Assembly (NCBI RefSeq): GCF_013167455.1
Contig: NZ_CP038328.1
Source of the DNA: Escherichia coli O157:H7
GTDB lineage: Bacteria > Pseudomonadota > Gammaproteobacteria > Enterobacterales > Enterobacteriaceae
Strand: one strand, 5' to 3'
Length of the DNA stretch: 64,000 nt
Below, piece by piece: positions 54,001 to 57,000 of this stretch. The position numbers are program-made. Numbering within the stretch: position 1 is the stretch's first letter; each line of letters starts with the position of its first letter.

Positions 54001-57000
54001 ATCAAAATACGCTTTCCTGACGATCTGATAATTATCAGCTCAATACATTTGACATAAAAGCGGTTTCTTAATTACTACTGCTACGATCACATATCAAATC
54101 ATGATCGTACAATATACATTTTCACTATTATTTATTCACAATTTGAGACATCACATAATCCGCCCATGCCTGCATCATCGGTACACGCTGCTCCAGTAGA
54201 TCAGTACGATGATATGCCGCCTCAACCTTATTTTTCAGCGTATGAGCGAGCGCCCTTTCCGCCAGATCCCGCGAATACCCCTGTTCGCTACACCAGTCCC
54301 TGAATGTTGAGCGAAAACCATGTGCCGTGGCAACTCGCCCCGGAATGTCACTGACGGCTTTCTTTTTACGCAGAAAACTTGTCAACACCATATCGGAAAG
54401 GATCTGCTGCTTTCTGGGTGAAGGGAACACCAGTTCATCATGCAGGCCACGTATATTTTCCAGAATGTAAATAGCCTGCCGGGATAAAGGAACACGATGC
54501 TGTATCCTGGCTTTCATTCTTTCTGCAGGTATAGTCCATACCCGCTTATGAAAATCAATTTCAGCCCAGCGCATTCCCCTGGCTTCGCCCGAGCGAGTTG
54601 CTGTAAGTATCACCATTAATAACAGTGCGCGGGTAACATTATAAGGTTCATCGGTATACACACTGGTCGCCACAAAAAGCGGTAACTGCCTCCAGGGCAT
54701 TGCGGGTTGGTGTTCATCACGTCCTCTTGTCTGCTGAGGAAGCAAATGGTCAACCACATCAACAGGATTTGCTACACAAAAACCGTGCGCCCATCCCCAC
54801 TGCATAACAACATGAATGCGCTGTTTAACCCGGCTTGCCGTTTCTGACAAGGTTAACCAGACTGGACGCAGTGTTTCTGCCACGTCCGCAGCCGTAATCG
54901 AATCCAGCGTTTTTGCTCCCAGTTGAGGAAACGCGTAATTCTCAAGCGTCGATAACCACTGCCTTACATGCTTTGGATTTTCCCATCCAGGAGACAGTTC
55001 TGCATGTACACGCCTGGCTGCATCGGCAAATGTTGGGATAGCGACTTTCTCAGATTCAGCCTTTTTAATCTCCAGAGGATCATCACCTGCAGCAAGTTGC
55101 TCTCGCATTATCCGGGCAGTACGTGCAGCTTCAGCAATACTGACCTCTGGGTAAGTTCCCAATCCAGCATTACGTCTTTTTTGTGTCACCGGACTTACAT
55201 AACGAAAAACCCATTTCCCCCGCCCCTTTACTGAAGAAGGATGAAGGGTCAGTCCGGTAATTCCCCCATGGGGCAATGGTTTGTCATCAGGTTTGATATG
55301 TCTTGCTTTCGTATCCGTCAATACTGCCATACGCTAATTCCCGTCACTCTGGTATGCCATCCAGTATGCCATTAGTCTCTCGCTTCACTAAGAATACATT
55401 AGATAATATCGGACAACAAAAAGTGTAATACATTGTTTATAATGAAATTATATAACACCCCTGGATTAAGTCAGATTTATTTCAGGCGGTCCCCCTCACC
55501 GCCATATTTAAAGAAGAGCTCGTACGAAAGTACGGGCTTTTTTTTCGTATATTGCACACACCGGGTGCCCCCGCCCACGTCTGTTTGGGCGAGGGGAAAT
55601 CGTGCACATCAACTGTCTGGTTGCTCAGTCAACAATCAAAATGCGCAAGAGAGTACAGAACATATATGTATTATCTGGTCACTTCCTATCACTTCCTCAC
55701 TTATTAAAATGCCCCCAACGGAAATACATGTCACATGCCATCATAAAATCGTTATGCCAGAGGAATCGACAATAGAAAAAATAGTAAATTAAGCACGGTA
55801 CATAGCAGAGTAAAAAATAGGCTTCAAACCAAATCCGCCATTCCACAAGCGTTGCCAATACCGACACCAGCGTAATCCACATCACTTCAATAACCAGCAA
55901 TATGAATAACCGAAGCCAAAGCGGCTTGGCAAAAAAGGTCGACAATGCATTTTCACTGGAGAAAAAGAGATCGATTTCCTGCAAAAAAAGCCTGCCCAAA
56001 AAAGCGTACCGCCTGGAGAAGCGCAGAAAAAACAGATTAATCGCCAACACTACGCCACAAAGAATGAGCAATGCAATTATCGATTTAAACGTTAACCACT
56101 GCCCCTCTATCACAAAAGAATCACTGTTACGCAACGGGCTGATAGTAAGCAGGTTAACAACCGTTGAGATGCACACCGAAAGCAGCACATAGCGAGTCAG
56201 ACTTTTATATTTTACTTTTTTCGCTACTGAAATAGCGACCTGCTTGACATAACTGGTGCGGATCATCCGAAACAGCAGAAAGATAACCAACGGCCCAAGT
56301 AACGAAATCAGGAACAGCGCATATAACGAGGGTAGACGCTGGTATAGCCCCCAACTCATTGCACTCAACATGATTAACGACAGAAATCCTGCCACCAGAG
56401 GTTGCGTAAGAAATAATTCTATTTTGTGGTTCTGCTTTTTCTTAAACCACGAAAAATCGATATTCTTCGTGACGCATTTATAAGCCCAGTACGCCTTGAG
56501 ATCAAAAATAAAATTATACAGCACCAGGGCCAGAATCCCACTAACGACACCAATATCCTCTGATGGAAAAGTAAATCCTGCATTTTTCCAATAAAAGCCT
56601 ATCAGAATAAGTCCAATAGCATAAATGTATATCAGACTTCGTTTATCCTGAAAGCGAATAAAAGTTAAATAATCAGGAATCATTTGAATACCTTCGCATC
56701 ACTAAATGCTTTACGACAATGCATAACTCGTTGCTGATCCACGCCAGCGAAATCGTTGAACATATTCCCCAAATAGGGCTTATTACTTATTTCAAGGAAA
56801 GCTACCGAGGTTGGCATATTCAGAAATGTATCGAGAGATTCAGTCCATTTCACCGTATGAGTTAAGTGTAATGAGAGATTTTCTTTGATAATTGACGGAG
56901 CGACCTCGCTTTTTGCTGTTACGTTCATCAGAACCTGATGCTCTGGCGAAGCGATATCCAGTCCGGCAAGATAATCGCGCATTGCCTGAACGCCGTCTTC

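Follow-up and report, generated by a model that had tools for sequence, protein, structure and literature searches.

Within the 64-kb window considered here (the whole stretch of Escherichia coli O157:H7 DNA that was analyzed), the 3' end of a tRNA-Ser gene stands beside a gene for a P4-type integrase, detached from the rest of its tRNA. Two questions are raised by this arrangement: whether the orphan tRNA end is one attachment site of a tRNA-integrated island and, if it is, why the integrase gene adjoins the partial repeat instead of the intact tRNA. The evidence assembled below indicates that the interval is very probably attR, the right junction of the SpLE1/O-island 48 (OI-48) integrative island in serX of E. 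coli O157:H7. Earlier publications already describe the element together with its integrase, its 14-bp repeats, and its excision, and O157:H7 genomes carry it as a matter of course; the comparative organization of its attachment site is treated in the later sections.

The Right Junction and the Empty Site

The sequence from 55480 to 55550, as read from the window, is TTTCAGGCGGTCCCCCTCACCGCCATATTTAAAGAAGAGCTCGTACGAAAGTACGGGCTTTTTTTTCGTAT, and the features in and around it are collected in Table 1. The core, CCCCCTCACCGCCA, occurs once in the 64-kb window, versus a mean of ~0.02 in shuffled sequence. A first-pass annotation had described a 17-nt match to the 3' end of tRNA-Ser(GGA) at 55488-55504; the match is real, although its length is 14 nt, the GGT at 55488-55490 being a mismatch where the tRNA has TCC/CCC. 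That annotation had also taken the repeat to lack the rest of the tRNA, and indeed ARAGORN detected no tRNA anywhere in the window, and hence none adjoining the repeat. A 119-aa ORF at 55433-55792 (+), which overlaps the att core, the terminator, and the antisense strand of ycdU, was presumed to be spurious.

Table 1. Coordinates of the features at the right junction of the island and of related features in the window
Feature	Position	Strand	Basis or remark
SpLE1/OI-48, right-hand ~55.5 kb	1..55490	.	Annotation of near-identical genomes and collinearity checks
AlpA-family helix-turn-helix protein	50716..51024	-	Pfam Phage_AlpA, E 5.6e-19
P4-type tyrosine integrase (int), 400 aa, intact	54128..55330	-	Pfam, PHROG integrase, similarity to P4 Int
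GTATGCCAT tandem pair, 12-bp period	55352..55372	+	22-42 bp upstream of the int start codon
Third arm motif, TATCGGACAA	55407..55416	+	Recurs in both att arms
Inverted repeat GGCGGT / ACCGCC, perfect, around 7 bp (CCCCCTC)	55485..55503	.	Read from the sequence; forms a hairpin in the fold
att core, attR copy (14 nt, CCCCCTCACCGCCA)	55491..55504	+	Last 14 nt of tRNA-Ser(GGA) serX/serW
Native serX rho-independent terminator, backbone DNA left at attR	55510..55545	+	Fold and empty-site copy
ycdU, chromosomal flank convergent with serX	55697..56683	-	Annotation

Alignment with an island-free reference, which had been suggested as a check, locates the junction to the base. In strain D217-5, the locus reads ghrA-serX-terminator-ycdU, and homology with the window begins exactly at 55491, with a few SNPs; all DNA to the left of 55491 is island. 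Because the window aligns to D217-5 from this base onward, the strong terminator that follows the repeat is the native serX terminator. Its hairpin comprises a GC stem (55517-55538) and eight T residues (55538-55545), with a folding energy of -20.4 kcal/mol (z = -6.5 against shuffles), and the same terminator is found in D217-5 with one SNP, located in the stem. It may also act for the convergent ycdU gene, and a terminator-like site is found on the minus strand (55534-55521). The assignment of DNA to the right of the repeat to the chromosomal backbone likewise stands, ycdU being present in D217-5 as well; beyond ycdU, gene content itself varies among E. coli. An Rfam scan of 54900-56000 at E<=1 returned sub-threshold matches alone (e.g., MicC at 37.6 bits versus a gathering score of 90); those to MicC, the Thr leader, and the Leu leader were rejected as chance, with alignments lying mostly over the terminator hairpin, and RtT gave no match in the same interval at the same threshold. 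PGAP applies the label "RtT sRNA" near the equivalent site in some other strains.

The Opposite End and the Identity of the Island

The region matches E. coli O157:H7 chromosomes at 100% identity, and the second core and the intact tRNA are known from near-identical complete O157:H7 genomes that differ from the window by IS elements; owing to these differences, distances to serX are given as ranges. The partial copy and intact serX are separated by 79.6 kb in PV15-279, a genome whose collinearity with the window is incomplete because of IS differences, and by 76.7 kb in MB41-1, which is collinear with the window save for one extra IS1203 copy and in which serX lies ~20 kb past window position 1. 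In both genomes, the sole other copy of the core, with one mismatch allowed, is the 3' end of serX. The search for a second att copy that the first-pass annotation had proposed is thereby answered, and its expectation of an intact tRNA to the left, outside the window, is confirmed: in the near-identical genomes intact serX adjoins ghrA 75-80 kb away on the left side, which places it ~20-24 kb past the window edge. Taken with the empty-site junction at 55491, the core at serX in these relatives bears out the proposal that the orphan sequence is the distal att repeat of a tRNA-Ser-integrated island. At attL, the arm abutting serX brings a replacement terminator, AAGCGCATGTTATTGTTTAACATGCGCTTTTTT, with a predicted fold of -17.4 kcal/mol (z = -7.0).

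The island is SpLE1 of strain Sakai, or O-island 48, the tellurite-resistance/urease island in serX. Its cargo, as annotated by PGAP on the PV15-279 copy, includes iha, the ter cluster, the ure cluster, and many IS elements; YfjI/DUF3987 is also carried, and an AEP-TOTE primase/helicase at 44789-47173 probably corresponds to iee, which has been placed in SpLE1 (PMC9397093). A 605-aa ORF adjoining int had no match in PADLOC, Pfam, or PHROGs.

In EDL933, OI-43 and OI-48 have at their ends perfect 14-bp direct repeats, TGGCGGTGAGGGGG, which form the final 14 bp of serW and serX; the Shigella SRL PAI has identical repeats, and its int shows 99% identity to the P4-family int that each of the two O-islands carries (Bielaszewska et al. 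2011, PMC3064760). The published repeat is the reverse complement of window positions 55491-55504. In the figure legends of the same study, OI-48 is flanked on the chromosome by ycdU and ycdW, and an intact serX is told apart from a cryptic ser'X; the P4-family int of OI-48 lies at the ycdU/cryptic ser'X end (PMC3064760). PCR detected complete excision of OI-48 between the repeats, with restoration of intact serX, at a frequency of ~2e-4 of cells, in strains that included EDL933, Sakai, and clinical isolates, and intact serX/serW were restored in subpopulations for OI-43/48 (PMC3064760); the SRL PAI int, for its part, is needed for precise deletion (reviewed in PMC7545054). The present island thus shares with SpLE1, OI-48, and OI-43, which are tellurite-resistance and adherence islands at serX/serW, its site (ghrA-serX ... 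ycdU), its 14-bp repeat, the position of int at the ycdU end, and its cargo, and differs from SpLE1/OI-48 in strain-level IS content and island length alone (75-80 kb in the genomes examined). By the account in PMC3064760, the 14-bp repeats and the serX/serW target are common to it and the SRL PAI, along with a 99% identical int; the SRL PAI has another cargo, in which antibiotic resistance and fec genes take the place of ter/ure/iha.

The Integrase Gene

As the first-pass annotation had stated, a P4-type integrase gene lies immediately inside the island; it is full length and begins 160 bp from the core, and its transcription runs away from attR, into the island. The product contains the Pfam domains Arm-DNA-bind_3 (1.6e-15), Phage_int_M (2e-24), and Phage_integrase (8.5e-20), shares 32% identity with P4 Int across residues 13-393 (E 6e-49) and 34% with K-12 IntA across its full length, and has R246, H337, R340, H363, and Y373 aligned with the conserved catalytic motifs (Arg / His-x-x-Arg / His / Tyr). 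The gene and the arm sequence proximal to it are present in 1307 of 5426 complete E. coli genomes. A promoter scan yielded one sigma-70-like site facing int, at 55474-55447 (-), versus 1.7 expected from shuffles, and when the sequence of the aspV relative described below was read by eye, no consensus matching this site was apparent; the site was therefore not taken as evidence of an int promoter. Autoregulation of int is conceivable, as the proximal GTATGCCAT pair is located in the 5' region of the gene.

Architecture of the Reconstructed attP

To rebuild the attP site, the island portions of attR and attL were joined, such that the junction reads from the window up to 55490, through the core, and into GATTATAAGCGCATG. 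The 9-mer GTATGCCAT has four copies in ~108 kb (the window plus locus L002, taking in the whole island and its flanks), arranged as one tandem pair of 12-bp period per island end in the same orientation at both; in the window it is restricted to the pair listed in Table 1, and the second pair lies just inside the other island end. On the rebuilt attP, the pairs fall at -139/-127 and +70/+82 relative to the core start. A further motif, TATCGGACAA, is unique to the two arms in the window and L002, is located exactly 55 bp from the first GTATGCCAT in both (attP -84 and +125), and can be regarded as a putative accessory or RDF/IHF-type site. Read toward int, the rebuilt attP consists of a tandem arm pair, ~55 bp, the core, ~118 bp, the second arm pair, ~21 bp, and the int ATG. 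The GTATGCCAT repeats are candidate arm-type binding sites for the integrase, and the pair at 55352-55372 would represent the int-proximal arm of attP; this reading is suggested by the parallel with phage P4 and by the conservation of the pairs in relatives, both of which are considered below. A full-text search of the literature for GTATGCCAT together with integrase returned nothing relevant. The excision and attP of the SRL PAI were reportedly the subject of work by Turner et al. in 2001 and 2004.

Diverged Relatives of the Integrase

Variants of the integrase at serX with 98% (E2348/69) and 94% (Br_167) identity also have int adjacent to the partial core and lack a nearby tRNA; they retain the motifs, whereas the neighboring bases vary. 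A more distant relative, 68% identical at the nucleotide level, is found in strain 23CRST035 in a ~50-kb island at aspV, where int adjoins a 13-nt tRNA-Asp 3' end, with the native terminator and then yafT beyond it, and where the far end of the island presents an intact tRNA-Asp convergent with a DUF4942 gene. Conservation of the GTATGCCAT pairs extends through the 94-98% variants to the aspV relative: in the latter, three GTATGCC(A/T)T repeats lie upstream of int and a pair lies 55 nt after the core at attL, and ATCGGAC is present in both arms with the same spacing as in the serX island. The serX and aspV attP sites are 52% identical overall, with conserved arm-motif blocks, and the island-borne terminators have different sequences.

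The core region of the two islands behaves differently from the arms. In the serX island, the core is embedded in the inverted repeat listed in Table 1, whose left half is island DNA and which is invariant in the 94-98% variants, a pattern suggestive of a pair of core-type half-sites for the integrase, one on either side of the strand-exchange (overlap) region. The island-side half covaries with the acceptor end of the target tRNA, reading GGCGGT|CCCCCTC|ACCGCC at serX and GCGGA|CGTCCGT|TCCGC at aspV, and the covarying runs likewise appear to be inverted core-type half-sites around a 7-bp overlap region. Since the half-site covaries with the tRNA acceptor end and the arm sites stay constant, retargeting to a new tRNA may have come about by changes in the core and catalytic part only. 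It is possible, if rather doubtful, that the attP organization of this widespread integrase clade has so far gone undescribed in its combination of fixed-spacing arm modules of two GTATGCCAT sites and one TATCGGACAA, a built-in tRNA replacement terminator, retargeting of this kind, and a tRNA-sense strand inverted with respect to that of P4.

Comparison With Phage P4 and K-12 Elements

A parallel to this architecture is found in phage P4, which shares with the serX island the domain architecture of its integrase and the presence of tandem arm repeats of 12-bp period on both sides of the core, one set of them just upstream of int. Measured upstream of the int ATG, the proximal arm, core, and distal arm occupy 16-39, 152-171, and 225-248 in P4 (GenBank annotation) and 22-42, 161-174, and 231-251 in the present island. 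The two differ in target tRNA (leuX for P4) and in arm motif (GGGGGCAT vs. ATGGCATAC, in the direction of int), and the serX island is no phage satellite. They differ also in how the core is oriented: in P4, its leuX-sense strand is the int strand, whereas in the serX island the tRNA-sense strand of the core is the plus strand and int is encoded on the minus strand, upstream of the core. The P4 orientation results in the order tRNA and then int, as in K-12, where leuX is followed by intB and where intA stands at the start of the annotated CP4-57 prophage. Placement of int 3' of the tRNA-sense core, beside the intact tRNA, is typical of P4, intB, and intA without defining the family, and the serX island has the opposite placement.

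A precedent for this placement exists in K-12 CP4-6 (thrW ... intF), which resembles the serX island in having its integrase at the far end, ~110 bp from the distal boundary, and its intact tRNA convergent with a module of YeeU/CbtA-type toxin-antitoxin, RadC, antirestriction, and DUF932 genes. IntF is nevertheless remote from the serX-island integrase, with one local match of 54 aa (E 4e-4), and was accordingly rejected as a close relative; CP4-6 offers a precedent for the geometry but falls outside the family.

Alternative Explanations

Given that the match to the tRNA is merely 14 nt long, it could in principle be a chance similarity, or a decayed tRNA pseudogene unconnected with integration. 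Such an origin is extremely improbable, however, as 0.02 matches are expected per window, homology to island-free strains stops precisely at the first base of the match, and the same 14-mer terminates intact serX at the opposite island boundary. A different doubt concerns the present state of the element, for the attachment sites and int could be real and the junction nonetheless a fossil, with an element that is no longer mobile in this strain. The many IS insertions and pseudogenes in the island, as well as the SNP in the core-adjacent terminator, point in this direction, but the full-length int has aligned catalytic residues, the two 14-bp repeats match perfectly, each end retains an intact arm module, and PCR has demonstrated complete excision in several O157:H7 strains whose int and junctions are identical (PMC3064760), all of which make loss of mobility unlikely.

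The first-pass annotation had considered an integrase beside the partial repeat to be unusual and perhaps indicative of a tandem or composite island, that is, of two elements integrated serially or fused at serX, in which case the local int would belong to the second element and its own tRNA-proximal att site would be internal. The island is mosaic and IS-rich, hybrid islands with OI-48 ends are mentioned in the literature (PMC7545054; PMC3064760), and the canonical P4-type elements of K-12 do place int next to the tRNA. Against this history stand the window and L002, in which there is no third core copy between the two ends (one mismatch allowed), a single annotated tyrosine integrase in the island, and matching arm-site modules that are confined to the two outer ends. 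Moreover, the same geometry is seen in the 98%, 94%, and 68% relatives, among them the ~50-kb aspV island with its other cargo, and it follows directly from the orientation of the core in attP: int lies beside the partial repeat because the core has its tRNA-sense strand opposite to int. A serial or fused origin is consequently very improbable. With one integrase, two core copies, and relatives of like geometry, the suspicion that the arrangement is anomalous does not survive; int at the partial-repeat end is the normal, clade-specific geometry of a single island.

A Model for Integration and Excision

Starting from the junctions, repeat, empty site, integrase family, conserved motifs, and geometry established here, a mechanism can be proposed for the single island at serX. 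The P4-type integrase, presumably bound at the GTATGCCAT repeats, recombined the attP of the circular island with the 3' end of serX. Exchange would take place inside the shared 14 bp, probably in the 7 bp CCCCCTC between GGCGGT and ACCGCC. One product, attL, contains intact serX, with its last 14 nt followed by the island-borne replacement terminator; in the other, attR, the orphan 14-nt tRNA 3' end stands ahead of the native serX terminator and ycdU. The inverted core puts int and its arm sites beside the partial repeat instead of the intact tRNA. Excision is the reverse reaction between the two 14-bp repeats, probably with the aid of the AlpA-family protein, whose gene lies 4 kb into the island and which, by analogy with CP4-57 AlpA and P4 Vis, is a candidate excision/directionality regulator. 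Excision activity itself is known from the literature (PMC3064760).

Significance

The right boundary of SpLE1/OI-48 can now be placed at 55490|55491, which is useful to annotation. Island-calling rules that expect int next to an intact tRNA would mis-orient or split islands of this kind. Lastly, the comparative attP model, with its arm sites, third motif, inverted half-sites, and island-borne terminator, constitutes a modest, testable refinement for a common integrase family.

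Strain-specific content of the island

The interior of the island (SpLE1/OI-48) is not constant even within the serotype: the window differs in its copies of IS1203/IS629, ISEc20 and ISEc8 from O157:H7 genomes that are otherwise identical to it, and the length and internal order of the island are thus strain-specific. In the two O157:H7 genomes checked, the island measures 75-80 kb.

Variation extends to the integrase (int) end, where a 605-aa ORF of the window lies between int and the IS1 remnant/AlpA gene and has no match in Pfam, PADLOC or PHROGs. In the island variants of E2348/69 and Br_167, int is directly adjoined by a DUF3987 gene and an HTH gene, with the 605-aa ORF missing from that place; this ORF is thus variable cargo in an int-proximal slot. 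The DUF3987 gene of the window appears in the mechanical ORF list as an N-terminal piece of 65 aa and a body of 467 aa; compared with the PGAP model, this split may come from a frameshift or from a different choice of start. Further inward, a 794-aa primase-helicase gives a strong PADLOC match to PrimPol (E 2.5e-147); it is probably iee, the IS-excision enhancer described in the literature as part of SpLE1.

Features of the island and of related loci
Feature	Position	Strand	Remarks
IS difference	1255|1256		versus 40959-42267 of L012, an E. coli locus
IS differences	8828-8830 and 35411-49299		versus L004, an E. coli locus
Primase-helicase, 794 aa	44789-47173	-	AEP-TOTE primase domain, then ResIII/DEAD helicase
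DUF3987 (YfjI-family) gene, two ORFs	50292-50489 and 48688-50091	-	mechanical ORF list
605-aa ORF	52124-53941	+	annotated as hypothetical
attR-like scar, strain WB61	L008 2960-3110 (NZ_CP020025.1)		equivalent to window 55418-55565

The right flank and the WB61 locus

The "backbone" to the right of the island (55566 onward) itself varies among strains, as comparison of L006, L007 and L008 (WB61) revealed. Only ~75 bp (55491-55565), comprising the core, the terminator and a short tail, is common to every strain compared. Beyond it, O157 and the island-free strain D217-5 carry ycdU and an ACP S-malonyltransferase/ABC transporter/LolA-like cluster, E2348/69 carries a DUF2726 gene and phoH, and in Br_167 and WB61 dgcT follows directly.

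In some strains, PGAP annotates an "RtT sRNA" directly downstream of serX or of the island's int end, an observation drawn from matches H4, H5, H8, H11 and H13, which are serX/serW downstream regions of other E. coli genomes; the matches H4 and H5 are each split in two, and their overall span is ~180 bp longer than the stretch of query covered. An Rfam scan of 54900-56000 found no RtT match at E<=1.

In WB61, the serX gene body is absent, and tRNA detection found none at the locus. Instead, the serX upstream region (...GGAACGACAATT) runs without a break into the final 73 bp of the island arm, after which come the 14-nt core and the terminator. Judging from this arrangement, the locus looks like the product of an imprecise deletion at a GACAA microhomology that took out the island and serX together and left an attR scar behind. 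The supply of tRNA-Ser(GGA) in WB61 is presumably provided by serW alone.
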